Positions 1 through 15,415 of a DNA stretch of 15,654 nt are shown here, piece after piece. The stretch is taken from NCBI GenBank assembly GCA_043750125.1, contig JAYVCD010000230.1:1-15654 (forward strand), read 5' to 3'. Source of the stretch: Archangiaceae bacterium (GTDB lineage: Bacteria > Myxococcota > Myxococcia > Myxococcales > Myxococcaceae). Each line of letters opens with the position of its first letter. Positions within the stretch are counted from its first letter, which is position 1. The notes under the pieces were generated by a model. That model ran no database searches. It saw only the letters and a program-made list of their open reading frames with translations, and had not been told where the DNA came from. Position numbers and translations under genes: made by a program.

Positions 1-286
1 CCGCGGTCACCGTCTGGATCGACCACCGCAAGACACCCGGAACGATCGTGATCTGCGGAATGCTCGAGGCCGGAAGCGCGCTGCGGACATCGACGAAAGC
101 GCCCTTGCTGAGCACGATCACCCGCGTCGGGTCGCCCGTCGCCCCAAGCATTCGCCACACGCCGCCACCAATCGCGCCGATCGCGGCCAGAGAAAACGAC
201 ACCAGGGCCATGCTCACCAGAAGCAGCGCGGTGACCAGGCGTCGCGAAAGCAGGCCCCGAACCACGTAGATGAACAGGGGAGACAT
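1..286 (-). CDS. ABC transporter permease, FtsX/MacB family (N-terminal part; runs off the window start)
   Basis: Not in the ORF track. My translation from ATG at 286 is MSPLFIYVVRGLLSRRLVTALLLVSMALVSFSLAAIGAIGGGVWRMLGATGDPTRVIVLSKGAFVDVRSALPASSIPQI..., open to position 1. It has the basic 'LLSRR' + TM1 + 'GDPTRVIVLSKGA' pattern typical of MacB-type permease N-termini. The ATG directly follows the TGA of the upstream permease. Confidence 0.85.
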   Translation of the reverse strand, partial: MSPLFIYVVRGLLSRRLVTALLLVSMALVSFSLAAIGAIGGGVWRMLGATGDPTRVIVLSKGAFVDVRSALPASSIPQITIVPGVLRWSIQTVTA

Positions 287-1423
287 TCAAGCGCCTCGCA
301 GCGCATTCAGGGGGTTTGCATACGACGCACGCAGCGCAGGAATCAGCGACAGCGCCGTCCCCAACAACAGGCCGAACGCGGCGGAAATCAGGCAGACGTC
401 CCACGACACGACGACGTTGAACGCGATGACGTGAAGCCCATACCTGAAGAGCAGAAAGGGGATGAGGCAGCCCCAAAGGACCCCCGGAGCCGCAAGCAGC
501 AACGACTCAGCCACGATCATCCGAAACAAATCTCCCCGCTCGAACCCAATCGCCCGCAACGTCGCCAACTCGAGCCGCCGTTCGTCGATCGAAAGCGAGA
601 TGAAGGTCAGCATCACGACGATCACCAGGAACACGGCGAGCAGCCCGGTTCCGCGGATGACCGAGATGGCGAGGGCCGCTCCGCCGTAGATCATCGACTT
701 GGTCTCTTCCATCTTCCAGTACACGAAGGGGCGTCCTGGAAACTCCGTCCGCAACTGCTGCATCACGAGCTCCCGGGCCTCGACGCTGTCGGCGAGAATC
801 CAAGTGGCCCACGAAGTGAGCGGCTTGTTCAAGTACGACTCGACGTAGTCCGGGTGAACGTAGATCGGCTCGAAGTCGCCCATTCGGTTGTTCACGACCG
901 CGCTGATGACGAACTCAGGGTCTTTGAGGCCCTTCTCTTTGTACTCGGGCCAGAGCGGGAGCGTCACCGACTGACCTTCTTTCCAATTCATCCGCTCGGC
1001 CGTGGGCAGGGTGACGATGATCCCATTTCTGATCCGCTCCCACTTCTCGAACTGCTGAGGGGAGACGATCGTCTGGTCGCGCCAGATCTTGATGTAACTG
1101 GAAGTGGTCGCGTCGCAGACCGAGGACTGATGTTGGTTTTCTTTGGTCGAACAGCCGCCTTCCGTCATGAACCCCATGCTCTCGACGTGCGGCAGCCGCT
1201 CGATGCGCTTGAGCTCGGCCCTCGAGAACGAAGCCTTCTGAGCCCACGCCCCGACCCGGAAGACCCTTCGATCGAAGTCGTCGGTCTGGGTCCAGCGCAG
1301 GGCGGTCTCGACCCCTACCAACATCGTCACCAGCGCGAACAGCACCGTCGTCGGAGCAACGATGTAGAGCAACGACCAGCGTCGACGAATGAAGCTGATC
1401 CAGGCCAACCGCAACGTGCTCAT
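287..1423 (-). CDS. ABC transporter permease, FtsX/MacB family
   Basis: N-terminal 'LRLAWISFIRRRWS' + TM, a large periplasmic domain, the FtsX signature 'SIDERRLELATLRAIGF...IVAESLLLA', further TMs and C-terminal 'PALRASYANPLNALR'. Start placed at ATG 1423 (MSTLRLAW); the ORF track extends to 1507. Confidence 0.92.
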   Translation of the reverse strand: MSTLRLAWISFIRRRWSLLYIVAPTTVLFALVTMLVGVETALRWTQTDDFDRRVFRVGAWAQKASFSRAELKRIERLPHVESMGFMTEGGCSTKENQHQSSVCDATTSSYIKIWRDQTIVSPQQFEKWERIRNGIIVTLPTAERMNWKEGQSVTLPLWPEYKEKGLKDPEFVISAVVNNRMGDFEPIYVHPDYVESYLNKPLTSWATWILADSVEARELVMQQLRTEFPGRPFVYWKMEETKSMIYGGAALAISVIRGTGLLAVFLVIVVMLTFISLSIDERRLELATLRAIGFERGDLFRMIVAESLLLAAPGVLWGCLIPFLLFRYGLHVIAFNVVVSWDVCLISAAFGLLLGTALSLIPALRASYANPLNALRGA

Positions 1424-1531: not shown

Positions 1532-2404
1532 TCAGAAGGAAGCGTTGCTCATCCGAACGTGAATTCTTCGAGTGGGATCGGTGAAGGGCATCCGTCCGTG
1601 CATCATGCGGGTGTTGTCGATGAGCAGGACCTCGCCGGCACGCCATTTGATCGGTTCGGTGAGGTCGTGGGCGAGCGCAAGCAGGTCCCACTTCAGCTCT
1701 TCGGTGATGGGTTCCCCGTCCTCGAAAAACATCGAGCATTGATCGTGGACGATCACGCTGTTCACGAACGCCAGCTCGGTTCCCCAGCGCGTGGGCAGCG
1801 CCGCGTCGGTGACGTACTCGATGTCGATGGTGCCATCGGTGTTGAGCCGGTGGCTCACCCCCTCGAGCTTGCCCAGCGCCTGCGAGGCTTCAGTCGCGCC
1901 AGTCCAGGCGCCGGTATAAACGGGCCACACATTCCGGTCTGCCCGGGGAAATGAGTACTTGATCCGTTTCTTCGAGAAGCGCGCCTTGAGCTCAGCTCCC
2001 ATTTTCGACCACAGCTCCACCCCGTCAGCCAGAAACGTCTCGCCGCCCTTCGACGCCGGATGAACGCACAAAAACCAGAGCAACTCGGGCCGCAGCGGGC
2101 TGTAGCTGAGCTCGCAGTGATGGCCGACCAGCTTGTTGCCGAGGTTGACGGTGCTGGTCCGACCCTCATCGGAGACCATGTCGCGGTGCGAGCCCGCGTG
2201 CAGGTTTGTGACAAACGAATGGCCGAAACTTTCCGTCAGCGTCTTGAACCCATCACCGTCGATCTCGAAGCCACTGAACAGGACGGCCCCTGACGTTTTC
2301 AGAAGCTCGATGATCTCGGGTCGCGGCAGTGCACTCACGGTCGCGGCGCCACGCGCGCGGACCACGGTGCCCCAGCGACGGGTCAGAGGCGCGGCGTCGA
2401 ACAT
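1532..2404 (-). CDS. TauD/TfdA (clavaminate synthase/SyrP-like) Fe(II)/2-oxoglutarate-dependent dioxygenase
   Basis: H-x-E motif 'HCELSY...PELLWFLCVHPASKGGETFLADG', distal His and 2OG-binding Arg region 'WRAGEVLLIDNTRMMHGRMPFTDPTRRI'. Starts 6 nt after the cyclodeaminase stop, with GGGA as SD. Confidence 0.93.
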   Translation of the reverse strand: MFDAAPLTRRWGTVVRARGAATVSALPRPEIIELLKTSGAVLFSGFEIDGDGFKTLTESFGHSFVTNLHAGSHRDMVSDEGRTSTVNLGNKLVGHHCELSYSPLRPELLWFLCVHPASKGGETFLADGVELWSKMGAELKARFSKKRIKYSFPRADRNVWPVYTGAWTGATEASQALGKLEGVSHRLNTDGTIDIEYVTDAALPTRWGTELAFVNSVIVHDQCSMFFEDGEPITEELKWDLLALAHDLTEPIKWRAGEVLLIDNTRMMHGRMPFTDPTRRIHVRMSNASF

Positions 2405-2410
2405 AGTCCC

Positions 2411-3535
2411 CTACCGCTTGGCGAGCCCGGCTACCGACCGCAGGCCCGCGCTCGCCTCTTCGGCTTCGACCACTGAATAGGGATCCAAGGGGTCGGAGGG
2501 CATGGCCTCGATCGCAAGCGCGGTGCCCAGGCCCAGGCGCGCCGCGTGCGCGAGAATCATCTCGAGCACCACCTTGTCTTCGAGCGCGAACCCGGTCGAA
2601 TCGAACAACGTCAATTTTTCGCGGTATTCGGTGAACCGGTCTGGAGTCTTGACCAGCTGCGCGAGGCTGGGGCCAATCAGATCGTCGGGAATCTGCTGGC
2701 ATTCCCCTTCGAGCATCGCCTGGGGGCGAAAGTCTGGGCAGACCAGGGCGCGCTCGACCACCTCGCGCGGACATTCGGTTTTTCCAGGGACGTCCGAGCC
2801 GACCGAGTTGATGTGCACCCATGGCTTGAGATCCCGACCCTCGAAAACCGGCCCTTTCCCGACGGGCACGCTGGTGGCGGTCACCAGAATGTCGGCCTCG
2901 GCCTCGATCGTCTTGAGCTCCTCGGGCCGGACCTCGAGCTTCAGGAAGGCAACCCGCTGAGCAAACGACTTCTTCGCCGCCGGGTCAGTATCGTGAACCA
3001 GCACCTTGTCGATCGTGCACACCCTCGAGAGCGCATGCAGCTGGGTGACCGCCTGGGCCCCGCAGCCAATCATCCCCACAGTGCGGCTTTTGGGGTGGGC
3101 CAGAATCCGGGTGGCGATCGCTGAAGCCGCCCCGGTGCGCAACGCAGTGAGAAACACCCCGTCGGAAAGCGCCATCAGGTGACCGGTCTGGACGTCGTAC
3201 TGGCTGGTGGTCGCCAGAATGGTCGGGATCCCGTGCTCCCTTGGGTTGTTGGGGTTGTAGCTGACCGTCTTGATGATCGCCGTTCCCCCCAGTTCCATCA
3301 CCGGCATCCACTCGAGCAGGCCGCCGGTCAGCTCTTGAGGAGCGCCCCGCGCGATCCCGCTTCCCCGCCGCCGGTCGTAGTTGAACCCGTCGCGCTTGCG
3401 GACCTCTGTGATGCGCGAGTCGTAGTTGCGCAGCGCCTCGGTGAGCGCGGTGATCAGCTCGTCCATCAAACCGTCGCGTCCGACCTCGGTGACGATCCGT
3501 GCGATGTCGCTTCGGGCAACCACCAACGTATTCAT
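2411..3535 (-). CDS. Ornithine cyclodeaminase/mu-crystallin family protein, most like L-lysine cyclodeaminase (RapL/PipA/TubZ type, pipecolate-forming)
   Basis: Motifs 'EWMP', 'KTVSYNP', 'LTALRTGAASA', NAD-binding 'IGCGAQAVTQLHALSRV', 'TATSVPVGKGP', 'EGECQQ', 'FDSTG' and C-terminal 'DPLDPYS', plus N-terminal 'VGRDGLMDELI', resemble RapL-type lysine cyclodeaminases as I recall them. Start ATG 3535 has AAAGGT upstream; the ORF-track extension to 4039 overlaps the opposite-strand gene. Confidence 0.9.
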   Translation of the reverse strand: MNTLVVARSDIARIVTEVGRDGLMDELITALTEALRNYDSRITEVRKRDGFNYDRRRGSGIARGAPQELTGGLLEWMPVMELGGTAIIKTVSYNPNNPREHGIPTILATTSQYDVQTGHLMALSDGVFLTALRTGAASAIATRILAHPKSRTVGMIGCGAQAVTQLHALSRVCTIDKVLVHDTDPAAKKSFAQRVAFLKLEVRPEELKTIEAEADILVTATSVPVGKGPVFEGRDLKPWVHINSVGSDVPGKTECPREVVERALVCPDFRPQAMLEGECQQIPDDLIGPSLAQLVKTPDRFTEYREKLTLFDSTGFALEDKVVLEMILAHAARLGLGTALAIEAMPSDPLDPYSVVEAEEASAGLRSVAGLAKR

Positions 3536-3566
3536 CGGCACCTTTCCACGCGATCGACGGTGCTCA

Positions 3567-3575
3567 AACCTAGCA
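3567..3575 (-). promoter_or_regulatory. Possible extended -10 element (TGC-TAGGTT) for the cyclodeaminase-dioxygenase-permease operon
   Basis: The minus strand reads TGCTAGGTT (TGn + TANNNT) about 30 nt upstream of the ATG, in the divergent intergenic region. Motif match only. Confidence 0.3.
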
Positions 3576-3701
3576 GACCGGTCGCTTTCTCCGGACGGAA
3601 TGACGGCCTTCCTTGTGGGGCAAGGTGGGCGGTCGATCGCCAACAGCCCGGTATATGTTTGGGCCGAACGAAGTCGGCGCCCCCTGGAGTAGCCGCTGCC
3701 C

Positions 3702-4901
3702 ATGACTGAAGCAGAACGGACTGGAGCGCTGGAACAGGCGGGGCTCAACGTCCTCAATCTGGACCCCAACGAGATCGCCCTGGATCTGCTGACGGACGTC
3801 CCAGCACGCATCTGCGTGGCCGAGGTGGCAGCGGCAACCGCCCGGGCCGCTCGGGGGGGAGCACCCAGCCCCGATCTGCAGGCACTCGCCGAACGCCTGT
3901 ACGGCCCCGCGCGGTACGTCTTTTCCGCCAAGGGCAGATCCGCCGAATTGGCCCTGGTCGCGGCCGCCGTCGAGCCGGGGTCGACGGTCTTGACCCACGG
4001 CCTGTTCCGCACCACGGCGCGCGCGCTCACCGAACGCAAAGCGACCCTCGAAATGATTCCTCGCCGCGCCTCGGACCATGGCCGCGCCGACGTTGATCTC
4101 GAGTGGCTGTCCGCTCGACTGGCCCAGGGAAGAGTCGACGCCGTCTACCTCGAGCCGAGCAACAACGCGCTCGGCGGGTGGCCGCTCTCGCTCGAGAACG
4201 CCGAGGCGGTGGCAGCCGCTTGCCGCACAGCGAGCTGCCGCCTGCTGCTCGACGCGACCCGGCTGCTCTCCAATGTCTGCGCGCTCGGACTGCCCATCGG
4301 GGAGACCACAAAACGTTTCATCGCGCTGGCCGATGGCTTTACCGTCAGCTGCGCGAAAGAGCTGCTGGTCCCCCTGGGTTCACTGGTCGGTGTTCGAGAT
4401 CTGCCGACCCAGCGAAAAGTCTGGTCCCACTGCTTCGAAGAAGGGACGTTGCTTGATCCGCTCGAGGCGAAGGTCGCGCTCGCCAGCGGCATCGAGGCCA
4501 CTCTGGATTTTCGGCATCTGAAGTCGCGCGCCCGCCAACTCAAAATGCTCGCCGACGAGCTTCGCGCCCGCGAGATTCCCTTCCTCGAACCGATCGGGGC
4601 CCACGCCGTCTACGTGGTCGTGGGGCCGCAGTTGGGCGAAGGCCCGTTGCGCTCACACGCGCTGCAAGGACTGCTGTACCGAGCCGGTGGAGTGCGGGCG
4701 CTGATTCATGGCAACCCCATTCTCAAGACCCGGCTGATGCGGCTGACCCTCACGCTTGGCAGATTCAGCGATCAAGACATCACCTCGATCGCTCAGGCCG
4801 TGAAGGCACTTTTCGAGCGCGCCTTCGAGGCGCCCGAGCTTGAGGCCCGCCCCGGAGACAGCGTTCACGAGGCGTACTTCTCACGCTACGCCCGGGCTTG
4901 A
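3702..4901 (+). CDS. Divergent tryptophanase/tyrosine phenol-lyase-like PLP-dependent enzyme (beta-eliminating lyase family)
   Basis: '[20 protein letters not shown]' (cf. AGYNTFLL..IYIDLLTD), 'KGRSAE' (QGRGAE), '[13 protein letters not shown]' (NLAGGQPVSMAN), 'LDATR', PLP-lysine motif 'SCAKE' (K219; cf. SGKKD/SAKKD), 'PIGAHAVYV' and 'MRLTL'. GGAG upstream. Confidence 0.85.
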
Positions 4902-4928
4902 TTCCCGCTCAGCAGCACCAAAGTCGGT

Positions 4929-5624
4929 TCAGGAGTTCGCCGACTCTCTGAAGACCAGGCCCTTCTCGAGGTGGAGCACCCGGTTGGCGCGCTTGGCGGC
5001 CTTCGGGTCGTGGGTCACCATCACGATCGTCTTCCCGAGCTTCTTGTTGAGCAGCAGCAACAGCTCGAGGATCTCATCGGCCGACTTGGCATCGAGATCG
5101 CCCGTCGGCTCGTCGGCGAGGATCACCGTCGGGTCGGCAATGATGCTGCGCGCGATCGCCACCCGTTGTTCCTGGCCACCGGACAACATGCTGGGAAAGT
5201 GCTTCGAGCGATCCGACAGGCCGACCAATTCGAGCGCGGTCTGGACCCGACGGCGGCGCTCCTTGCTGCTGAGCTTGAAGAGCAACAGCGGCACTTCGAC
5301 ATTTTGTGCCGCGTTCAATACGGCCAGCAGGTGGTAGCGCTGAAAAATGAAGCCGACATGGTTGCTGCGCCATTTGCACAGCGCGCTGTCGCTCATCGTG
5401 GCTGGCTCGTAGCTTCCAATCGAAACCTTGCCCGACGAGGGGCGGTCGAGCCCAGCGATCAGATTCAATAGCGAACTCTTGCCCGAGCCCGAAGGGCCCA
5501 TCAACGCGACAAAATCTCCCGCCGGAACGTTCAGGTTCACTCCATCGAGAACCTTGATCTGCTGGTCGCCTCGCACGAACGACTTGGTGACCTGCTCGAA
5601 CTTGACGGGAAGCGCTTCGGCCAT
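4929..5624 (-). CDS. ABC transporter ATP-binding protein, LolD/MacB-NBD-like
   Basis: Walker [10 protein letters not shown]-loop 'VGFIFQ', signature LSGGQEQR, Walker B '[11 protein letters not shown]', H-loop 'VMVTHD'. Strong SD GGAGGAG 7 nt upstream. Confidence 0.96.
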
Positions 5625-5730
5625 TTCTGGGCTCCTCCATCGGCTTGGGCCGACGAATGCGACCCGCGCACTTTGTCAGTTCCCCTCTGAGGTTCCAACA
5701 GTTCTTCCCCCTCCCCGCCGCACATTTCGT

Positions 5731-5874
5731 CGCGCCGTCCGACCGGCGTTTCCCGCCTTCCGACCGGCGTTTCCCGCCTTCCGACCGGCGTTCCGCGCCG
5801 TCCGACCGGCGTTTCCCGCCGCCCAACCGGCGTTCAGCGCCGTCCGACCGGCGTTTCCCGCCGCCCGACCGGCG
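5731..5874. repeat. 21-bp tandem repeat, about 6.9 copies, consensus CCGACCGGCGTT(TCC/CCG/CAG)CGCC(TT/GT/GC)
   Basis: Full units start at 5739, 5760, 5781, 5802, 5823 and 5844, with partial units at 5731 and 5865. The first 12 bp are nearly invariant (one G>A). Lies between divergent genes. Confidence 0.95.
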
Positions 5875-6042
5875 GGACGATGTGTGCGGCCCCGGCACCG
5901 CCTCAATCGTCCTCCCCGTTCGAGCAACCAATCTGATGTGGGCAACGGGGCCATGGTACGGTTCGGGAAATCGATTTTCGGCAGATCCGCGCCATGGGCT
6001 CATCGCCTCCGCTGTGGAAAAGTCGTTGAAGAGGGCAAACCT

Positions 6043-7218: not shown

Positions 7219-8064
7219 GTGAACCAGCCGGGAGAGGCAGTGCTGACGGCTGCGATCGACGACGCGCGGCGCTCTTTTGGCCCGCGCCTTCTGGCGGGGT
7301 ACGCGCTGGGCAGCCTGGCTCACGGGGGCTTCAGCGCCGAGCTGAGCGACGTGGACCTGGGCCTGGTGCTCGCTGATCCTCTCAGCGATTCTGACGGGCT
7401 TGCAGTCGCTGATCTGGTTGCCCGCTTCAAGGCCACCGGAGATCCCCTCGCGGGTCGCCTTTCGGTCTTCTGGGGTTCGAAAGCCTCGCTGACCGGAAAA
7501 TCGACGCTGGGCAGGTTCCCCCCGGTCGATCGCCTCGACCTGCTCCAGTACGGGCGGCTGCTCGAGGGCAAGGACCTGCGCGAAGGCCTGCCTGTTCCCA
7601 CCCAACGCGAGCTGGTGGTGGCCGCGGCCTGGCTCGGCCTCGAGGTGCTCGACCGACCCGATGTCCGCGCCGAGCTCATCAGCCCCGAAGTCCTCTACGC
7701 CCATGGCCCCAGGCCGCTGACCAAGCGGGTCCTCTTTCCAGTTCGCTTCCTCTACACCGCCCGCACCGGGAAGATTGGACCCACCGACGCGGCGGTCGAA
7801 CACTACCTGTCCTCGGCAAAGCCGGCCCAGAGCCTCGTCGCTGCCGCGCTCAGATGGCGGGAAACCACTCCTTCCCGGGACGAAGCGATCTCGCTCTTGA
7901 GCCAGGGCTTGAAGCCGCTGTACCTCGAGTTCATCGACGATTATCTGGCCCGCGTCCGCGCGTACGGCGAGGTGCAGCTGGCTTCCTTGCTCGAAGGGTG
8001 GCGGGCGCGCATCGCCGCCGAGCTGCCCGGAGATGCGGGCGTACCTGCCGTGGGTGTCCGGTGA
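7219..8064 (+). CDS. Pol-beta superfamily nucleotidyltransferase domain protein (aminoglycoside adenylyltransferase-like architecture)
   Basis: N-terminal 'LAGYALGSLAHGGFSAELSDVDLGLV' matches the hG[S]x9-13DhD NTase motif and is followed by a helical C-terminal domain. GTG start is 3 nt after the previous stop. Confidence 0.8.
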   Translation: MNQPGEAVLTAAIDDARRSFGPRLLAGYALGSLAHGGFSAELSDVDLGLVLADPLSDSDGLAVADLVARFKATGDPLAGRLSVFWGSKASLTGKSTLGRFPPVDRLDLLQYGRLLEGKDLREGLPVPTQRELVVAAAWLGLEVLDRPDVRAELISPEVLYAHGPRPLTKRVLFPVRFLYTARTGKIGPTDAAVEHYLSSAKPAQSLVAAALRWRETTPSRDEAISLLSQGLKPLYLEFIDDYLARVRAYGEVQLASLLEGWRARIAAELPGDAGVPAVGVR

Positions 8065-8801
8065 GCGCGCCCGAAGCCAAGGACCCCAAAAGCGTCTCGC
8101 TGTTCGCCACCTGTCTGGTCGACGCGCTCTACCCCCGGGTGGGCGCAGCGGTCGTTCAGACCCTCGAGCGCGCGGGCTGTGAGGTCGACCTCCCCGAGGG
8201 CCAGACCTGCTGCGGGTTGCCTTTCTACAACAACGGGTACGTCGCCGAGGCCACGCGACTGGCCCAGAACACCATCGCCGCGCTCGAAGGACAGCAGCCG
8301 GTGGTCGTTCCGTCCGGCTCTTGCGCGTGGATGATGCGGTCGATCTACCCCCGCCTGCTGCCCGCAGGGGAAGCGTTCTCCAAGCGGGTCGTCGAGTACT
8401 CCGAGCTGCTCTCGAAGCTCCCGGGCTGGACCGCGCGCACCCCGCCCGCGGCTGGAAAAGTGACCTACCACCCGTCTTGCCACCTGCTCCGGGGGCTGCA
8501 CGTCGAGAAAGAGCCGAAGAGCGTGCTCGGAAGAATCGAAGGCCTTTCGTTGTGCCCGATGGATCGTGAAAAGGACTGTTGTGGCTTTGGAGGCTCCTTC
8601 TCCGTCCGCTACCCCGAGGTGTCGACCAGCATGCTCGAGGACAAGCTCGCCAGTGCCCAACGGACAGGGGCCGAAACCATCGTCGTGACCGACGTAGGGT
8701 GCCTGATGCAGCTCGAGGGAGGCCAGCGGCGACGTGAAGCAGGCCCCCGCGTCATTCACCTCGCCGAGCTGCTCGAGGAAAGCGCCCCCAAAGACCGATG
8801 A
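8061..8801 (+). CDS. lutA: Lactate utilization protein A (LutA/LldE/YkgE), Fe-S CCG-domain protein
   Basis: 'VSLFATCLVDALYP', 'QTCCGLP..NNG', 'PSGSC', 'YHPSCH', 'CCGFGGSFSV', 'DVGCLMQL', 'IHLAELL'. GTG at 8061 overlaps the upstream TGA (GTGA). Confidence 0.93.
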   Translation: MSAPEAKDPKSVSLFATCLVDALYPRVGAAVVQTLERAGCEVDLPEGQTCCGLPFYNNGYVAEATRLAQNTIAALEGQQPVVVPSGSCAWMMRSIYPRLLPAGEAFSKRVVEYSELLSKLPGWTARTPPAAGKVTYHPSCHLLRGLHVEKEPKSVLGRIEGLSLCPMDREKDCCGFGGSFSVRYPEVSTSMLEDKLASAQRTGAETIVVTDVGCLMQLEGGQRRREAGPRVIHLAELLEESAPKDR

Positions 8802-10207
8802 AAAGCCGGCCCCACGAAGGAGTCTACGCCCGGGCCCGAGAGGCCGTAGGCGACCCCCAGCTGCGCGACGCGGTCTGGACCAGCACCCAGCGGTTCCTCA
8901 ATGGTCGAAACCGCGCTTTCGAGCAGCTGCCGCAGCAAGGCTCGCCGATGCGGGACCTCGGCCGCGAAATCCGCATTCGCACGCTGAAGAATCTCGACGT
9001 CCACCTCGAGCGTTTCGTGGCCTCGTGCAAGCGAAACGGAACGCAGGTGCACTTCGCCCGGGACGCGGCCGAAGCGGCCCGTACGATCTGCGACCTGGCT
9101 GCCGGCAAAGGCCTGGTCATCAAGTCCAAGTCGATGGCGACCGAAGAGATTCACCTCAACGAGGCGCTTCAGAAACGGGGCATCGAGGTCGTCGAGACAG
9201 ATCTGGGCGAGTGGGTCATTCAGCTCGCGGGCGAGACTCCGGCGCACATCATCGCTCCGGCGCTGCACAAGACCCGCGAGCAGTTCGCCGAGCTGATCGG
9301 CCGGGAAGTCGGTCGCACCGTCTCGACCGAACCTGAAAACCTGGTCGCCGAGGCCCGGGCCCGGCTGCGGCGCGACTTCGTGGCCGGGGCGGTCGGCATC
9401 TCGGGGGTGAACTTCGGAGTCGCCGAAACCGGGACGCTGGTGTTGGTGACCAACGAAGGCAATGGCCGGCTGGTCACCTCGGGCCCCAAACTTCACATCG
9501 CCCTGATGGGAATAGAAAAGCTGGTCCCCACCCTGGACGAGGCGTTTGCGCTGCTGCGAATTCTGCCGCGCAGCGCCGCGGGTCAGAAGCTCACGTCCAA
9601 CACCACGTTCATTTCGGGGCCCCGGCGCGCGGACGAGGTCGACGGGCCGGACGAGGTGCACGTGGTGCTGCTCGACAACGGGCGCATCGATTACCTTTCG
9701 ACCGACCGGTGGGAATCGCTGCTCTGCATTCGCTGCGGCGCGTGTCTCAATGTCTGCCCGGTCTACAAGCGCATCGGCGGCCACGCCTACGGCTCGACCT
9801 ACCAGGGGCCGATTGGATTGTTGGCGACTCCCATGGTTCGGCCGGAAGACCCCGAAGCGATCACCGACCTGCCTCACGCCTCTTCGTTGTGCGGCGCCTG
9901 CCATGAGATTTGCCCGGTCAAAATCGACATTCCCCGCATGATCCTTTCTGTCCGCGCGGAAGCCGTGAGCCGGGGGTGGACGGGCACCAAAGAGCGGGCG
10001 GTGTTTGCGCTGGCCGCCGCGGTTCTTTCCCGGCCGCGGCTCTATCGGGTGCTGGTGCGGGTCGCCGGGCTGTTCAGTCGGCTGCTCGGAGCCACCCACT
10101 TCAAGGCCCTGCCTTCTTTCTTGTCAGGTTGGACCTCGACGCGAGATCTACCGGTGGTCGCCCCTGAGTCTTTTCGAAGTTGGTGGCAATCGAGGAAGGG
10201 ACCTTAA
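8798..10207 (+). CDS. lutB: Lactate utilization protein B (LutB/LldF/YkgF), LUD domain + 4Fe-4S
   Basis: 'KSKSMATEEIHLN', 'ETDLGEWVIQL...PAHIIAPALH', 'TNEGNGRL', 'CIRCGACLNVCPVY', 'SSLCGACHEICPVKIDIP'. ATGA overlap with lutA. Confidence 0.96.
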   Translation: MKSRPHEGVYARAREAVGDPQLRDAVWTSTQRFLNGRNRAFEQLPQQGSPMRDLGREIRIRTLKNLDVHLERFVASCKRNGTQVHFARDAAEAARTICDLAAGKGLVIKSKSMATEEIHLNEALQKRGIEVVETDLGEWVIQLAGETPAHIIAPALHKTREQFAELIGREVGRTVSTEPENLVAEARARLRRDFVAGAVGISGVNFGVAETGTLVLVTNEGNGRLVTSGPKLHIALMGIEKLVPTLDEAFALLRILPRSAAGQKLTSNTTFISGPRRADEVDGPDEVHVVLLDNGRIDYLSTDRWESLLCIRCGACLNVCPVYKRIGGHAYGSTYQGPIGLLATPMVRPEDPEAITDLPHASSLCGACHEICPVKIDIPRMILSVRAEAVSRGWTGTKERAVFALAAAVLSRPRLYRVLVRVAGLFSRLLGATHFKALPSFLSGWTSTRDLPVVAPESFRSWWQSRKGP

Positions 10208-10208
10208 G

Positions 10209-10889
10209 GTGGCAGAGCCGGCAGAGGCCTTCTTCGCCCGGCTGCGTGCCTCGCTTGCGCGCTCGGGCGATTGGCGACAGCCCGAAGATCCCGACGCGGC
10301 CCGTAGCCCCGAGCCCTTCGTGCTGCCCGTCGACTCCGAAGGGGCCGTCGAAAATTTCGTTCGAGAATTCACTGCCGTCAGCGGTGAGGTGCACCGGGTG
10401 ACCGCGGCGGGGCTGACCGCGAAGATCGTCGAGCTCGCGGTGGCCCGGTCGGCGAAGTCGTACGCCAGCTGGGCCACCCCGCTGCTCAGTGACCCGGCCC
10501 TTCATCAGGCGCTGGCGGGCGCAGGGGTGACCCGGCTTCCGCTGGGCACCGATGCGGCGCGAGAAGGGTTACGGAACCTGGAAATCGGGCTGTCGGAACC
10601 CGACTGTGGTGTGGCCGAGACCGGAAGCCTGGTGTTGATTCCCGGGCCGGGGCGATCGCGCCTGGCGACGGCGATGGCGCGCTATCACTTCGCGGTTCTG
10701 CCCGTAGCCCGGGTGGTGACCAGCCTGACTGAGGTTCCAGCCCGGCTGCGCGCGGCCAAAGATGGCAACGGCCAGATGCGCAGCGACGCGGTGCTGGTCA
10801 CTGGCCCCAGCCGCACCGGCGACATCGAAGGTCAGATCGTCCTCGGGGCCCACGGGGCGCTCGAGCTGCACCTGTTGCTCGTCGGGTAG
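10209..10889 (+). CDS. lutC: Lactate utilization protein C (LutC/LldG/YkgG), LUD domain
   Basis: 'GVAETGSLVL', 'R..TAMARYHFAVL', 'VTGPSRTGDIEGQIVLGAHG'. GTG start at 10209 follows AGGAAGG and the lutB stop. Confidence 0.92.
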   Translation: MAEPAEAFFARLRASLARSGDWRQPEDPDAARSPEPFVLPVDSEGAVENFVREFTAVSGEVHRVTAAGLTAKIVELAVARSAKSYASWATPLLSDPALHQALAGAGVTRLPLGTDAAREGLRNLEIGLSEPDCGVAETGSLVLIPGPGRSRLATAMARYHFAVLPVARVVTSLTEVPARLRAAKDGNGQMRSDAVLVTGPSRTGDIEGQIVLGAHGALELHLLLVG

Positions 10890-10891
10890 CG

Positions 10892-12052
10892 CTACCGCTC
10901 GATTCCCCAAACCTCGGCCGCGTTTTTCCACATCAGCCGTTCCCGGTCGTCTCGCGAGACGTCCAACCCGGTCACCAGCCCGCTGAAGACGCGGTGGGAA
11001 TTCGGCCAATCATTGCCATGGTGGGGAAAGTCGCTGCTCCAGGCCATGTTGCGAATTCCGACTTCGTGGCGCAGCTTGACCCCGATCTTGTCTCTCATGA
11101 ACGTCAGCATCCAGTGGTCGCGGAAGTAGTCGCTCGGCCACCGCTTGAGCTTCATCTCGGTCCACTTGCGGTTTCGCTCGAACCGGTCGTCCATCAGATC
11201 CAGAACGTGCGGGACCCAACCCACGCCGACCTCGGCCCCGACGAACTTCAGCTTCGGAAATCGGTCGTGCACGCCTGAGAAAATGACCTGCAGCATCGGG
11301 TCGGGAAAAGAGGTGAAGAAACAGATGCCATGCCAGGCGAGCGCGGCCATCTGCTGCGAGCCGTCGTTCTTGGCCGGATCTTTGTCTTTCTTCGGGACTT
11401 CGGTGAGCGCCGCGCTTTGACCTGCCTTCAGGCCGACGTGGATGCAAATCACCATCCCCATCTCTTCGGCCACGGCCCAGAACTTGTCGTCTTCCACCGA
11501 AATTCGGTCTTCCCCGCTGGGCCAGGTCTTGAGCACCATGCCCCGGCACCCTTTCTCTTTCACCCGGTGGAGCTCGGCGATCGCGTCGGTGATGCCGGTG
11601 TCGGGAATCTGGGCCACGCCGATCAAGCGCTTGGGGTCCGCCTTACAAAAGCCATCCAACAAGAAGTCGTTGTACGCCTGCACTCCCGCCAGCGCGGCAT
11701 CCCGGCTGCGATTGCGCATGTTCATCCAATAGAGCAGCGCTCGCATCGGCGTGAACTGAACGGCTGCCGAGATCCCGTCTTGATCCATCGCGAGCAATCG
11801 CGCCGCGCCGTCATAGACCGCCGGAGGAATCGTCTCGCCGTACCGAAGCCCGGTATGACGAACGCTTTCTCCCATGTGGCTGACGATCCCCATGCTCCCG
11901 TAACGGCCGGGCTCGTAGGCCCAGGCATCGCCTCCGTCGGCGTCACGAACCAGCTTGGGGGCCAATTCCAGATACTTCTTGGGAAGCCATCGTTCCCAGA
12001 GATCTTTGGGTTCAGCGGTGTGTTGATCTGCATCGATGAGGAATTCGCTCAT
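10892..12052 (-). CDS. Amidohydrolase family protein (Amidohydro_2, metal-dependent TIM barrel)
   Basis: 'IDADQH', 'RLLAMDQDGI', 'AYNDFL', 'ICIHVG', 'FPKLKFVGAEVGVGWVP', 'WSSDFPH', 'NAAEVWG'. SD GAGAGG upstream. Confidence 0.93.
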   Translation of the reverse strand: MSEFLIDADQHTAEPKDLWERWLPKKYLELAPKLVRDADGGDAWAYEPGRYGSMGIVSHMGESVRHTGLRYGETIPPAVYDGAARLLAMDQDGISAAVQFTPMRALLYWMNMRNRSRDAALAGVQAYNDFLLDGFCKADPKRLIGVAQIPDTGITDAIAELHRVKEKGCRGMVLKTWPSGEDRISVEDDKFWAVAEEMGMVICIHVGLKAGQSAALTEVPKKDKDPAKNDGSQQMAALAWHGICFFTSFPDPMLQVIFSGVHDRFPKLKFVGAEVGVGWVPHVLDLMDDRFERNRKWTEMKLKRWPSDYFRDHWMLTFMRDKIGVKLRHEVGIRNMAWSSDFPHHGNDWPNSHRVFSGLVTGLDVSRDDRERLMWKNAAEVWGIER

Positions 12053-12091
12053 GTGCTGTAAAACCTCTCATTGTTCCTGCGGCGGGCAAAA

Positions 12092-12120
12092 ATCGTACAG
12101 CACGTCAAAGTCAGTTCCAA
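12092..12120 (-). promoter_or_regulatory. Putative sigma70-type promoter for the amidohydrolase (TTGGAA-N17-TACGAT)
   Basis: On the minus strand: -35 TTGGAA (12120-12115), an exact 17-nt spacer, and -10 TACGAT (12097-12092). Each is a 4/6 match, in a relatively AT-rich 85-bp gap. Confidence 0.45.
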
Positions 12121-12137
12121 CGAGGTCGTTCCACCGT

Positions 12138-12845
12138 TCAATGCAGCAGGTAGCTGATCAGATCTGAAGCGTCCGCGTCAGACAGCCGGTCGGTACTGAA
12201 GGGGGGCATCGTACCTCCGTGCCCGAAGAAGCGGCCATGTCGGATCGCGCGCAGAGCCCCCATGTGCCTGCTTCCGCCGGGCAGGTGGTCCGCCGCGTCA
12301 GTCAGGGCCTCGGGCATCGCCGGCACGACGGCAGCCAGGCGATGGTCCCCGGTGTTCTTCTCCCCGTGGCAGTGATCGCACGCCGCCAGGTAGATCTCTG
12401 CCCCCCGCATCACGTCACCGTTGGGCAACGGAAGCGGCGAGGCGACGATGGTATTCGGCAAAACGTCGGACGCGTTGCCAGGTGACGGGGAAGTCGACGC
12501 CAGGAATTCAAAAAGCGCGCGGGCCGTGGGGTCTTCGCGCTGCAGCGGCTGGCCTTGCATGAAGGAAGTCACGCACAGATTGACCGCCGCCAGCAACTGG
12601 GCCTCGGTGCCTCCCCAATAGGCCTTGCGAAGCGCGGTGCCCGCAAGCGGCGCCCCCGGAAAAATGCGTCTTCCGTCTTCCACGCCCGGGTTGTGGCAGG
12701 TCGCGCAGCTGAAGACGTTCTGACTCGAGGAAGAGAGCGCGGGGGAAGCGAACAGTTCGGCCCCCAGCTCACGCGCCGGTGTCGTCCGTTGCTCGGGGAC
12801 CACACAGCCGGCCAGACACAGGGCGAAGGCGAGGGCTCGAGTCAT
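12138..12845 (-). CDS. Di-heme c-type cytochrome lipoprotein, TsdA/SoxA-like fold
   Basis: Lipobox 'LAGC' (C14). Two CxxCH motifs: CATCH (47-51) and CDHCH (156-160). Extra Cys in 'AVNLCVTSFMQG' and C-terminal 'MPPF...LSDADASDLISYL'. ATGA overlap with the upstream gene. Confidence 0.9.
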   Translation of the reverse strand: MTRALAFALCLAGCVVPEQRTTPARELGAELFASPALSSSSQNVFSCATCHNPGVEDGRRIFPGAPLAGTALRKAYWGGTEAQLLAAVNLCVTSFMQGQPLQREDPTARALFEFLASTSPSPGNASDVLPNTIVASPLPLPNGDVMRGAEIYLAACDHCHGEKNTGDHRLAAVVPAMPEALTDAADHLPGGSRHMGALRAIRHGRFFGHGGTMPPFSTDRLSDADASDLISYLLH

Positions 12846-14113
12846 TGAAGGGGCGGCGGAGGAAAGAGGAGCAGCGTCGACCCCGACAGGCCCGCCGGCA
12901 TCAGGGCCGAGGCGCGCACGGCCCCGGACGCGAGGTTCACTCGAAGCAGGCGCGCGGGATCGCTGTCCCGGCCTGCGCAGACGACCACCGCGTCTTCAGA
13001 GCCAGGCGCATTTGCGAAGGCTGCCGTCGCCTGGCCACAGCTCGAAGGCAGGGCCCAGTCGATCAAGCTGCTCCCGGCAGAGCCGACCACCACGAGATGT
13101 TCGTCATGATTCAACGCCGTTCGGGCGAAGAACGACCGGGTTCCCTGGGTGCTGCCGAACCCCACCGGTCCCACGGTGTCGATCGTCCGGGACGAATCGA
13201 CCGCGCCGGACACCAGGTCGAACGCCCGAAGCTCGTGGCTGGACTGGCACGAAATCCAGACCGTGCGACCATCGGGGTCGAGGGTGACCGCCGCAGGTCC
13301 GTACGCGGGGGGTGCGAGCGGGTTGACTCCGGGCGTGGTCGTCGGCCGCGTCATCCGCGCGTTGGGGCCGATCGGGATCCGGGTGACCTTGAAGCCCTCG
13401 CCTTCGGGTTCCACCTTCGCCAGGCTGTCTTCGCCCCAACAGGCGACCAGCAGCTGCGATTTTCCGGACGAAAAAGCGGCACCGAGCGGCGCGATGCACG
13501 TCGGCACCACCTGCTTGACGACGAAGGCGGCGGCATCGATCACCGTGACCGGGCTTCGCCATTGGTCCGGGGACACCCGTTCGAGGATCCGCCGCAGGTC
13601 GTAGTGGGTCACGAACAGCAGCGTCCCATCGGGCGAGGCGACGACGTCAGCGGGGTTGGGACCCACGTCGAGGCGGGCGACCACCACTCCATCCGAAGCG
13701 CGCACCTTCACGATCTGCCCGGGCGCCGTCGAATAGCCCTGCGCTGCGCTCACGTCGCCATGTTCGGCATGACCCGACGGCTCGAGGCCCGCACCGGTCA
13801 GAGCCACGAACCAATACCGGCCGTCGGCGCTGGCCACGAGGCGCGACGCTCCGTCTTTTTCGATGGGGTTCCCGCCGACCGGAACTTTCGCCGTGACCGC
13901 GAGCGACACGGGGTCATAGAGCCAAAGCGAATCGTCGTCGCCCAGCACCGCCAACGTCGCGCCGGGCAGCGGGTCAATCACCCTTCGCTCGGGCCAGGGC
14001 TGGGAGAACTCGTAGACGACCGCGACGAGATCTGACGGACGCGGCTGACAGGCCAGGCCGACAGCGAGCAACGCGGCCAAGGGAAGAACGACCTTGGAAG
14101 CACTCCTCAGCAC
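12842..14113 (-). CDS. YncE/YVTN-family beta-propeller lipoprotein
   Basis: Signal peptide ending 'LAVGLA-C'. Blade motifs 'VPVGGNP', 'ASADGRYWFVAL', 'LDVGPNPADVVASPDGTLLFVTH', 'LDPDGRTVWISC'. Confidence 0.88.
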   Translation of the reverse strand: MLRSASKVVLPLAALLAVGLACQPRPSDLVAVVYEFSQPWPERRVIDPLPGATLAVLGDDDSLWLYDPVSLAVTAKVPVGGNPIEKDGASRLVASADGRYWFVALTGAGLEPSGHAEHGDVSAAQGYSTAPGQIVKVRASDGVVVARLDVGPNPADVVASPDGTLLFVTHYDLRRILERVSPDQWRSPVTVIDAAAFVVKQVVPTCIAPLGAAFSSGKSQLLVACWGEDSLAKVEPEGEGFKVTRIPIGPNARMTRPTTTPGVNPLAPPAYGPAAVTLDPDGRTVWISCQSSHELRAFDLVSGAVDSSRTIDTVGPVGFGSTQGTRSFFARTALNHDEHLVVVGSAGSSLIDWALPSSCGQATAAFANAPGSEDAVVVCAGRDSDPARLLRVNLASGAVRASALMPAGLSGSTLLLFPPPPLQ

Positions 14114-14170: not shown

Positions 14171-14216
14171 CCATCGCACTTAGACAGACACTCCATCACA
14201 CTTAGACAGACACTCC
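14171..14216. repeat. 22-bp direct tandem repeat x2 (CCATC[G/A]CACTTAGACAGACACT), candidate operator
   Basis: 14171-14192 and 14193-14214 are identical at 21/22 positions and are followed by CC. Intergenic between divergent genes. Confidence 0.92.
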
Positions 14217-14272: not shown

Positions 14273-15415
14273 GTGCCTGTCCCCTCGCGTCGTGCTGCAG
14301 CGATCCGACCTTCGGTTCTGCGCAGGCTTTTCGATTCTCGCAGTCCGACCTCGATAAATCTGGGAACCGGCGAGCCTTCAGTGCCCGTTTCGAACGCGCT
14401 GCTCGACGCGGGCATCGCCAGCTATCGCGAGAAGAGAACCGGTTACACGCTCAACTCCGGAATGATGGAGCTGCGCGAGAAAGTCGTTCGCTATCACCAG
14501 ACGCCCCACTACCCGACGACGAAGAACGTGGTCGTCACCATCGGAGCGACCGGCGGCCTGTTCGCCGCGCTGATGGCAGTCGGCGACCCCGGAGACGAGA
14601 TCCTCTATTTCGATCCGTCCTTCACCAACTACCCGACGGCGATGACCCTGGCCGGGCTGGTGCCGAAGCCGATTCGCCTCGAACGCGATCGTTCGTGGGC
14701 CCTCGATCTGGACGCAGTGGCCGCCGCGATCACCCCTCGAACCCGCGCGTTGCTCCTCAATTCCCCTTCGAATCCCACCGGAAGAATCGACAGCGCGGCC
14801 GAGCTGAAGGCGCTGGTCGAGCTCACCGAACGTTCGGGAATCTGGTTGATCAGCGACGAGGTCTACCGGGACATCTATTTCACCCCGAGCGCGCCTCCTT
14901 CGGTCGGAACGTTGACCGACCGGGCGATCGTGATTCGAGCCTTGTCCAAGAGCGCGTCGATGACCGGCTTCCGGGTCGGGTATGTGCTGGCCCCAGATGC
15001 GATCGCGACCGCCGTCGCTGCGGTGCACCAGTTCAACGTCACCTGTGCGCCCACGCTCTCGCAGCACCTGGCCCTGGTCGCGATGGGTGACCCCGAGCGC
15101 TACCTCACCGAGCTGTTGCCCGCCTTCAAGCGACAGCGCGCTGCGATGGTCGAGGCGGTCGACCGTGACCTCGGCATGCCCTTCGCCTCGCCGCAGGGAG
15201 GCTTCTTCATTTTCCTCGACGTGCGTTCCCTCGGGATGAAGTCCCTCGAGCTCTCAGAGCGCTTGCTGAGCGAGGCCGACGTGGTGACGGTTCCCGGTAT
15301 TGCATTCGGAGAAAACGGAGAAGGGTTCCTTCGGCTCTCGTTCGTGGCTTCCGAAGCGGACATTGCCGAGGGCATCGGGCGGATCAAATCGTTCGTCCAG
15401 AAGCTGAGGGCCTGA
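14273..15415 (+). CDS. PLP-dependent aminotransferase class I/II (aspartate aminotransferase Ib-like)
   Basis: 'INLGTGEP', 'GYT...G..ELRE', 'VVVTIGA', 'LLNSPSNPTG', 'ISDEVY', PLP-lysine motif 'LSKSASMTGFRVGY', 'PQGGFF', 'VPGIAFG...GFLRLSF'. Confidence 0.96.
   Translation: MPVPSRRAAAIRPSVLRRLFDSRSPTSINLGTGEPSVPVSNALLDAGIASYREKRTGYTLNSGMMELREKVVRYHQTPHYPTTKNVVVTIGATGGLFAALMAVGDPGDEILYFDPSFTNYPTAMTLAGLVPKPIRLERDRSWALDLDAVAAAITPRTRALLLNSPSNPTGRIDSAAELKALVELTERSGIWLISDEVYRDIYFTPSAPPSVGTLTDRAIVIRALSKSASMTGFRVGYVLAPDAIATAVAAVHQFNVTCAPTLSQHLALVAMGDPERYLTELLPAFKRQRAAMVEAVDRDLGMPFASPQGGFFIFLDVRSLGMKSLELSERLLSEADVVTVPGIAFGENGEGFLRLSFVASEADIAEGIGRIKSFVQKLRA

Follow-up and report, generated by a model that had tools for sequence, protein, structure and literature searches.

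A Stand-Alone Tyrosine Phenol-Lyase-like Enzyme of Uncultured Myxococcota That Lacks the Tyr71 Segment

The gene at positions 3702 to 4901 of a 15,654-nucleotide contig from an Archangiaceae bacterium (JAYVCD010000230.1, assembly GCA_043750125.1; the whole contig is referred to here as the window) encodes a pyridoxal 5'-phosphate (PLP) enzyme that is predicted to share the fold of tyrosine phenol-lyase (TPL) and tryptophanase (tryptophan indole-lyase, TIL). The residues expected to bind PLP and the substrate carboxylate are retained in this protein, and the counterparts of Tyr71, Ser51, and Lys256 of TPL are gone. The enzyme belongs to a separate subfamily, the short "D-[VIA]-P" group, and the pattern is neither due to chance nor unique to one gene. 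It is apparently an undescribed stand-alone variant of the fold found in TPL and in the SH domains of polyketide synthases (PKS); no earlier description of the subfamily was found among the papers listed in the literature searches, most subscription papers being outside them. The set of ligase, aldolase, and ATP-grasp genes that recurs with the enzyme marks an undescribed small-molecule pathway in uncultured Myxococcota.

Active-Site Residues and Integrity of the Gene

The 399-residue protein was found to score 92.6 bits against the beta-eliminating lyase family PF01212, for which the gathering cut-off is 27. The scores against the curated models fall well below their cut-offs: 85.4 against 720.7 for TPL (TIGR02618), and 131.5 against 285 (PRK13238) and 53.4 against 825.8 (TIGR02617) for tryptophanase. 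Residues were paired using a phmmer alignment to the TPL from E. herbicola (1C7G), and columns were counted in a multiple alignment of 52 subfamily domains, to which the fractions below refer. The features of the gene, all on the forward strand, are as follows.

3686-3689, +: GGAG, a possible ribosome-binding site (sequence inspection)
3690..3692, +: in-frame stop codon TAG, 12 nt 5' of the ATG at 3702
3702..4901, +: gene for the TPL-fold PLP enzyme, 399 aa; ATG at 3702, TGA ending at 4901
3798..3800, +: Val33, at the position of TPL Ser51 (phmmer alignment); Pro34 is next, at Gly52
3801..3875, +: remodeled, non-conserved segment in place of SGT.AM...GDEAY (pairwise and multiple alignments)
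3849-3851, +: Ala50, at the position of TPL Tyr71 (phmmer alignment; the multiple alignment agrees)
3930..3938, +: K77-G78-R79, phosphate-binding motif (TPL Q98-G99-R100); position 77 is Lys in 36 and Arg in 9 of 52, R79 is found in 51/52
4005..4010, +: F102, PLP stacking (TPL F123), and R103, at TPL T124; Phe in 52/52, Arg in 25/52
4251..4262, +: D184-A-T-R187 (TPL D214 and R217); Asp and Arg each in 52/52
4347..4361, +: S216-C-A-K219-E220, on TPL S254-G-K256-K257-D258; K219 and E220 in 52/52
4740..4742, +: R347, the alpha-carboxylate arginine (TPL R404), in 51/52

An earlier note on this DNA, based on alignment by eye, had proposed that the GDEAY tyrosine and the N-terminal arm are absent, that the PLP machinery is kept, and that the Thr124 and Arg381 sites are altered. 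These proposals are borne out by the formal alignments. The stretch D28-D32 falls on D46-D50 of TPL, and the position that follows it is Val in 41, Ile in 6, Ala in 4, and Asn in 1 of the subfamily domains, compared with Ser in 35/35 DSW/DSL and 32/32 canonical domains. A three-residue gap lies on TPL residues 66-68, with R48 on Glu69. No subfamily domain (0/52) has a Tyr within three columns of the canonical one; a non-conserved Tyr occurs elsewhere in the middle of the segment in three of them (P0009, P0018, and P0021). His336 is found at TPL Arg381 (IHG against ERG in the phmmer alignment). The Schiff-base lysine is retained as K219, and TPL Lys256 is replaced by A218; this position is Ala in 38, Ser in 10, Gly in 3, and Thr in 1 of the subfamily domains versus Lys in 32/32 canonical domains. 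An equivalent of Lys256 is thus absent from all 52, as it is from the SH-type homologs, and the Lys or Arg at position 77 may serve as a stand-in for it. The losses at the Ser51, Lys256, and Glu69 sites, the SH-domain precedent, and the partner genes described below go beyond the earlier note.

The residues K219, E220, D184, R187, F102, D32, E151, G248, and R276 are invariant in the subfamily, and R347, R79, H301, and T/S31 (51/52 each), N155 (49/52), and S216 (47/52) are nearly so; the PLP and carboxylate residues are retained in 49-52 of the 52 domains. Glu151 is found in 52/52 subfamily and 34/35 DSW/DSL domains versus 3/32 canonical domains.

The roles of these positions have been described for TPL and TIL. 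In structures of TIL, Thr50, Asn194, and Arg414 hold the carboxylate, Asp223 contacts the pyridinium, and the amine of the Lys is bound by Ser52 and Ser263; a chain from the Lys through Ser52, the phosphate, and water to Tyr72* has been proposed to relay a proton to the leaving ring (PMC11301627). Tyr71 of TPL is the proton donor to the ring carbon, and Thr124 and Arg381 hold the phenol. TPL also eliminates good leaving groups in vitro, Tyr71 being needed for protonation of the aromatic carbon (PMC9262865, PMC10170061). Ser51 is reported to stabilize the ammonium form of Lys257 (PMC7508748), and the N-terminal arms lock the TPL tetramer (PMC10170061).

With V33 at the Ser and A50 at the Tyr, the relay described for TIL is not found in the window protein, and the whole Lys-Ser-phosphate-Tyr proton relay appears to be lost, the equivalents of Ser51, Lys256, and Tyr71 being gone. 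Because the equivalents of Tyr71, Ser51, Thr124, and Arg381 are missing, the enzyme has presumably lost aromatic C-C cleavage, and the release of phenol or indole, which the earlier note had already doubted, is unlikely on the strength of these residues. The equivalents of T49, N185, R217, R404, D214, F123, and K257 are kept, from which the binding of PLP and of a carboxylate is likely, and the formation of an amino acid aldimine is likely as well. The enzyme is likely to be a dimer without a K+ site, because the arm, Glu69, and Lys256 are gone, and its pocket would be open to a large or activated substrate.

The TAG at 3690-3692 means that the N-terminal arm cannot be encoded. Residue 1 of the model pairs with TPL residue 19 in the structural alignment, with approximately 18 N-terminal residues absent; the remaining length deficit relative to TPL is made up of loop deletions. 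The DLxTD motif begins at residues 25-38 in 46 of 51 short-group proteins, compared with residues 42-57 in 18 of 21 canonical proteins. Public contigs from two runs (which may be the source of the assembly) cover 3224-5506, and two additional runs in that study have contigs over 3197-3880 and 3202-3851, in each case with 0 differences and 0 gaps. An artifact of the start site or of assembly was rejected on the basis of the TAG, the motif position in the subfamily, and the identical public contigs.

The reading frame is intact in 14 of 15 DNA copies, the window included, and one copy (L043) has a premature stop. The ratios of nonsynonymous to synonymous substitution (dN/dS, Nei-Gojobori) were determined to be 0.31-0.40 for the enzyme gene and 0.38-0.57 for the neighboring AMP ligase in the same four genome pairs, values that are inflated since dS is underestimated at this high G+C content of third codon positions. 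The enzyme value does not exceed that of the ligase in three of the four pairs and is about equal to it in the fourth; for close pairs it is 0.27-0.40, which is not very low. A pseudogene, an objection that the earlier note had raised against itself, was rejected from the preserved frame, the invariant PLP residues, and this comparison of dN/dS. A promoter scan of 3400-6000 gave 0 sigma-70-like sites, the same as the shuffled sequence.

The AlphaFold2 model of the protein has a pLDDT of 96.4, and Foldseek with this model returns TPL and TIL. Using VIA-align, the SH domain of GnmT (9CEN; Z 42.6, root-mean-square deviation 3.1, 387 residues aligned, 26% identity) and TPL (Z 42.0, deviation 2.6, 395 aligned) are tied at the top, the threonine aldolases reach a Z of at most 34, and serine palmitoyltransferase a Z of 30. 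The model indicates a fold in common with TPL from C. freundii and E. herbicola (1C7G, 6DVX) and with TIL (1AX4), and the equivalents of TPL T49, R100, F123, N185, D214, R217, S254, K257, H343, and R404 are kept. Relative to TPL and TIL, the window enzyme is 22-25% identical, is without the arm (TPL 1-18), the Tyr71/Glu69 segment, and Tyr291, and is found in a biosynthetic gene context. The changes relative to TPL are Ser51 to Val, Gly52 to Pro, Gln98 to Lys, Thr124 to Arg, Lys256 to Ala, and Arg381 to His.

It is already known that TPL folds without Tyr71 occur as PKS SH domains. The SH domains of LnmJ and GnmT have a TPL fold without Tyr71 and Arg381, as does the window enzyme (9CEN; PMC8479088; PMC3870968). 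These domains were shown to be (thio)cysteine C-S lyases (PMC8479088), and the two residues are described as not indispensable for all substrates (PMC3870968). The PKS-embedded and stand-alone DSW/DSL homologs in our set are also without GDEAY and Lys256 and also have E151, like the window subfamily. In contrast, the window enzyme is a stand-alone open reading frame (ORF) of 399 residues rather than a DUF-SH didomain, and it reads D-V-P rather than D-S-W, a motif that was taken from the PKS-embedded homologs in the set and not from the sequence of 9CEN. A scan of 14 window proteins revealed no PKS. The enzyme may act in the manner of an SH domain but is apparently not a member of that group, being stand-alone, without Ser51, and on a separate branch.

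The low-specificity L-threonine aldolases (1JG8, 4LNJ) are also PF01212 proteins without an N-terminal arm and without Tyr71. They are more distant from the window enzyme (Z 31-34, 18-21% identity, phmmer E of 6.6e-4 at best). Threonine aldolases use a His for stacking on PLP, instead of which the window enzyme has F102.

The Subfamily and Its Conserved Gene Partners

A word search gave 38 matches among 7,999 candidates, of which 33 (query included) score at least 182 bits and the next 102 bits; a full phmmer search yielded 46 clusters at E<=1e-30. From 174 proteins, we retained 156 domains that score above 70 bits and cover profile positions 20-330, and removal of five degenerate N-halves of tandem proteins left 151. 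These were grouped by the residues that follow DLxTD into 52 short D-[VIAN], 35 DSW/DSL, 32 canonical GDEAY-type, and 32 other DSG domains. Since the grouping itself uses position 33, the tree was rebuilt without columns 32-66. In this unrooted FastTree tree, the 52 short domains form one side of a branch with a support of 100, and the group label changes once, compared with a mean of 43 for shuffled labels. The subfamily stands apart from a 17-row PKS-type clade, the deep forks being weak. The branch is an old one: its members share 37-53% identity with the window protein, and their PLP residues are invariant.

The subfamily is rare, with 2 carriers among the 401 genomes of the phylum sample (the window's genome included; next match 1.9e-65) and 4 among 401 in the class of genome G401. 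Named records are from Myxococcota or "Deltaproteobacteria" metagenome-assembled genomes (MAGs). Several homologs are labeled "tryptophanase" in the databases, an automatic name that predicts indole production, probably wrongly. The window's genome also has a canonical GDESY enzyme on contig C387. In one fused subfamily member (P0026, 667 aa), the enzyme domain follows a PilZ domain and a receiver-like region.

Nine carrier genomes were compared: the window's (G000), G325 (same locus as L035), G401-G405, G735, and the L037 record. The carriers are MAGs, some of them incomplete, and no statistic is given for co-occurrence because kin are not independent. A long-chain-acyl-CoA-synthetase-like AMP ligase is present in 9/9 carriers and lies within 5 kb of the enzyme gene in 7/9. 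The profile for it was built from seven of these ligases, G403, G404, and G735 being independent tests. In the phylum sample of 401 genomes, this profile found five: both carriers and 3 of 399 non-carriers. The ligase family occurs without the enzyme gene in G235, G038, and G141, and a C-terminal PilZ domain is attached to it in several carriers (L036/L045, L037, L040, and L047). A DmpG-like aldolase was found in 6/9 carriers, as two ORFs in G405; its score of 196 is above noise and below the PRK08195 cut-off of 229. The same six carriers have a circularly permuted GSH/GSP-synthetase-like ATP-grasp ligase, for which the model is of low confidence (pLDDT 64, TM 0.4-0.5) and which occurs in 1 of 401 genomes of the phylum sample, namely, the window's. 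Both genes are absent from G325, G401, and G403. Without G735, an unpublished genome, the counts are 8/8 for the AMP ligase (nearby in 6/8) and 5/8 for the aldolase and the ATP-grasp ligase; G735 also contributes two of the dN/dS pairs, one of the independent tests of the ligase, one of the compact loci, and sequences for the profiles of the aldolase and the ATP-grasp ligase.

The complete four-gene set is clustered in L037 and in G735. In the window's genome, the three partners are side by side on contig C90 (L048, 8772-13799), next to a nonribosomal peptide synthetase (NRPS) and a cyclic-peptide-type ABC transporter. The GSH/GSP-synthetase-like ligase of C90 has no Pfam match above the cut-off. 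The C-terminal part of the C90 aldolase, approximately 300 residues, has one other homolog and no Atlas match above the bar, and the protein reads LRDGSY at what we take to be the place of the DmpG His. A predicted complex of the enzyme with the AMP ligase scored 0.15 against a mark of 0.32, which speaks neither for nor against an interaction. The orientation of the enzyme gene to the AMP ligase gene varies among carriers (tandem, convergent, divergent), which suggests frequent gene shuffling.

A similar combination of an HMGL-family aldolase, an ATP-grasp ligase, an AMP ligase, and a PLP enzyme is found in the cassettes for rhizocticin (RhiG) and nikkomycin, both of which follow an aldolase-aminotransferase-ligase logic. 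In the set described here, by comparison, the PLP enzyme has the TPL fold, the ligase resembles circularly permuted GSH/GSP synthetases in a low-confidence model, and the aldolase has the additional C-terminal part.

Two other arrangements of these genes were observed. In L066 (G141, contig C5, 9071-15721), an AMP ligase of this family that has no PLP gene beside it is fused to a domain that resembles class II 3-deoxy-D-arabino-heptulosonate 7-phosphate (DAHP) synthase by eye, with an AurF-like oxidase and, also by eye, p-aminobenzoate-synthase-like genes alongside; the ligase may activate aryl acids there. In G402 (L085 and L090; contig C42) and G000 (L096; contig C282), genes for ComA, ComB, a GSP-type ATP-grasp ligase, and GGT are present, and in G402 the ATP-grasp gene of the cassette lies between those of ComA and GGT. 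The co-occurrence with ComA, ComB, and GGT makes cysteate or another sulfonate a conceivable substrate.

Neighborhood of the Enzyme Gene

The other features of the window are listed below.

1..1423, -: two FtsX-type ABC permeases, of which the second is truncated at the contig end (Pfam)
1532..2404, -: TauD-family Fe/2-oxoglutarate (2OG) dioxygenase (PF02668)
2411..3535, -: lysine cyclodeaminase homolog, divergent neighbor (E 7e-92 to 5YU0)
4929..5624, -: LolD/MacB-type ABC ATPase, convergent with the enzyme gene (NCBIfam)
5733-5874: tandem repeat of a 21-bp unit (6.8 copies, 85% matches), between the start of the ABC ATPase gene and the gene that comes next
7219-10889, +: unassigned 281-aa gene, then lutABC-like lactate utilization genes (family scans)
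10892-14113, -: amidohydrolase, di-heme cytochrome c, and beta-propeller lipoprotein (family scans)
14171-14216: 22-bp repeat, 2.1 copies
14273-15415, +: class I PLP aminotransferase (best NCBIfam model the cyclodehydratase GntC, 284 against a cut-off of 415)

The enzyme gene separates the ABC ATPase from the ABC permeases, and here, as in L035 (10001-11197), it is the sole forward-strand gene within a run of reverse-strand genes. An ATPase that is 50% identical to that of the window is found in L046, divergent from the enzyme homolog. The protein encoded at 14273-15415 is probably an ordinary aminotransferase, and the genes at 7219-14113 are not linked to the enzyme.

The dioxygenase and the cyclodeaminase were rejected as conserved partners. 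The cyclodeaminase was matched in 0/5 other carrier genomes, in a search without a positive control; the dioxygenase was matched in 1/5, at 33% identity and on a contig other than that of the enzyme gene; and neither was found near the enzyme homologs in 16 loci. The first window permease was also set aside, with weak matches of 26-27% identity in 3/5 carriers and one of 32% over 389 residues beside the G402 aldolase, as were the carbamoyltransferases of contig C125, for which generic matches of 38-42% were found in 2/5 carriers.

Contig C125 of the window's genome encodes an adenylation-thiolation-thioesterase (A-T-TE) protein, an A-T-reductase, a 2OG oxygenase, and three carbamoyltransferases. 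The permease pieces at window positions 1-286 (95 aa) and at 13372-14172 of C125 (L091; 267 aa) are complementary, matching residues 112-205 and 221-486 of one G402 permease, approximately 15 residues apart. In G402, the two permease genes come after those for the aldolase and for an A-T-TE protein with 51% identity to the one on C125. From these matches, C125 probably continues the window leftward into the A-T-TE gene, and no public record was found that bridges the two ends. The A-domain code of the C125 protein was read from motif offsets as DVWHISLVDK, which we take to be that for serine. The A-domain codes differ among G000/G402 and G404/G405.

Possible Reactions and Related Proteins

We tentatively favor, as quite possible rather than probable, the beta-elimination or beta-replacement of a good leaving group by an intact stand-alone TPL-fold PLP enzyme in an undescribed myxobacterial pathway. 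In such a reaction, an alpha-amino acid would be bound via a PLP external aldimine, and the group removed or exchanged at the beta carbon would be a thiolate, carbamate, phosphate, acyl-oxy, or halide and not phenol or indole. In favor of this reading are the retained PLP and carboxylate residues, the C-S lyase activity of the SH domains, which are the closest characterized enzymes without Tyr71 and Arg381 and include the top structural match (tied with TPL), the E151 and the loss of Lys256 that the subfamily shares with SH-type homologs, and the elimination of good leaving groups by TPL itself. In the window's genome, the Ser-type A-T-TE protein and the three carbamoyltransferases, whose genes probably adjoin the window, could supply an O-activated serine, which could therefore be the substrate there.

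Several observations weigh against this assignment. The main one is the loss of Ser51 in the subfamily, which is kept in 35/35 SH-type/DSL homologs; it is the chief evidence against a plain cysteine lyase. The S51A variant of TPL reportedly eliminates S-alkylcysteines approximately 100-fold more slowly. The subfamily is not placed inside the PKS SH clade by the unrooted FastTree tree with its weak deep forks, no activating enzyme is common to all loci (carbamoyltransferases in 2/5 carriers, differing A-domain codes), and the partner genes are on other contigs in the window's genome. The homologous Ser52 holds the Lys amine in the TIL structures (PMC11301627).

It is somewhat unlikely that the lineage without Ser51 and Tyr71 instead became a transaminase or a C-C-forming enzyme within a mobile four-gene cassette for a new non-proteinogenic amino acid in uncultured myxobacterial peptides. 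Taken by itself, an aminotransferase of the TPL fold is unlikely. The scheme would begin with a 4-hydroxy-2-oxo acid made by the DmpG-like aldolase; amination by the enzyme would give a gamma-hydroxy amino acid, to be coupled by the ATP-grasp ligase. The presence of the aldolase and of the ATP-grasp ligase in six of the nine carriers, together with the rarity of the latter in the phylum, is consistent with this scheme, as is the compact locus L037, where no other PLP enzyme was found in the 12 neighboring ORFs scanned. RhiG-type HMGL aldolases yield 2-keto-4-hydroxy acids (bioRxiv 10.1101/2021.04.07.438883), and the loss of Ser51 could favor protonation at C4', given that the Lys of TIL, once freed from Ser52 and Ser263, lies 3 Å below C4' (PMC11301627). 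However, three carriers are without the aldolase and the ATP-grasp ligase, the G325 locus has its own class IV and class V aminotransferases, and R187 (TPL R217) is kept as in the lyases. We know of no transaminase in the TPL family.

Chemistry at a C-C bond is more doubtful still, whether the reaction is an aldol addition via an enamine like that of UstD or kynureninase, a retro-aldol reaction that splits a beta-hydroxy amino acid, or the acylation of a quinonoid with the AMP-ligase product. The AMP ligase is the tightest partner (9/9 carriers, nearby in 7/9, versus 3/399 non-carriers), both loops donated by the partner subunit are remodeled, and PLP enzymes are capable of such beta-substitution (PMC13397446). 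Against this stand the occurrence of the ligase family without the enzyme gene, the lower structural similarity to threonine aldolases and serine palmitoyltransferase noted above, and the stacking of Phe rather than His on PLP, His137 being used by oxoamine synthases (PMC3870968).

The earlier note had suggested that the enzyme acts on what the adjacent dioxygenase (and cyclodeaminase) makes, such as a hydroxy-pipecolate or hydroxy-lysine, which is improbable. The two genes are divergent neighbors across a gap of 166 bp, and the enzyme may take different substrates in different clusters. The comparison of carriers nevertheless speaks against the suggestion, both genes being absent near the homologs in the 16 loci and all but absent from the other carriers (0/5 and a distant 1/5), and pipecolate, a secondary amine, cannot form a normal external aldimine.

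Two further roles, taken together, are just as improbable: a non-catalytic protein that binds PLP or an amino acid, and one half of a heterodimer, contributing the Lys and relying on a canonical subunit for Tyr71. In their favor, the relay residues are missing, tandem TPL proteins of approximately 900 residues split GDEAY and the Lys between their halves, P0026 is fused to PilZ, and the window's genome has the canonical enzyme on C387. However, all of the carboxylate-binding residues are conserved, and T124, R381, and S51, which are retained in the C-halves of the tandem proteins, are missing from the short subfamily itself. Genome G325 (100% complete) has the short gene and no second TPL-family match at E<=1e-40, and a heterodimer with canonical TnaA was rejected on this basis. 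An ordinary tryptophanase or TPL, or a decaying copy, is highly improbable: the name "tryptophanase" on homologs, the premature stop in 1 of 15 copies, and dN/dS values that are not very low are outweighed by scores far below the curated cut-offs, an old branch of 37-53% identity with invariant PLP residues, and dN/dS values no higher than those of the AMP ligase in three of four pairs.

TPL and tryptophanase are used as industrial biocatalysts and as mechanistic models. The subfamily, which is without Tyr71, Ser51, Lys256, the K+ site, and the tetramer arm and retains the PLP and carboxylate contacts, offers a natural test of the roles of those residues, and its members are possible open-pocket catalysts for beta-substitution.

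Other proteins without Tyr71 were found in the set. In tandem double-TPL proteins of 887-928 residues (P0067, P0069, P0074, P0078, and P0084), the N-half keeps GDEAY and has no Schiff-base Lys, and the C-half keeps the Lys, Thr124, and Arg381 and has no Tyr71 (four are clear, P0084 is ambiguous). Such a protein resembles a complementing heterodimer joined into one chain, with a single active site. In the tandem proteins P0063, P0065, and P0068, a Lys is present in both halves. Stand-alone DSW/DSL proteins of 402-443 residues that lack Tyr71 and have Ser51 (P0083, P0095, P0109, P0122, P0128, P0131, P0139-P0142, and P0149) are possible free-standing relatives of the SH domains, and the DSW/DSL domain also occurs in several fusions of 600-780 residues.

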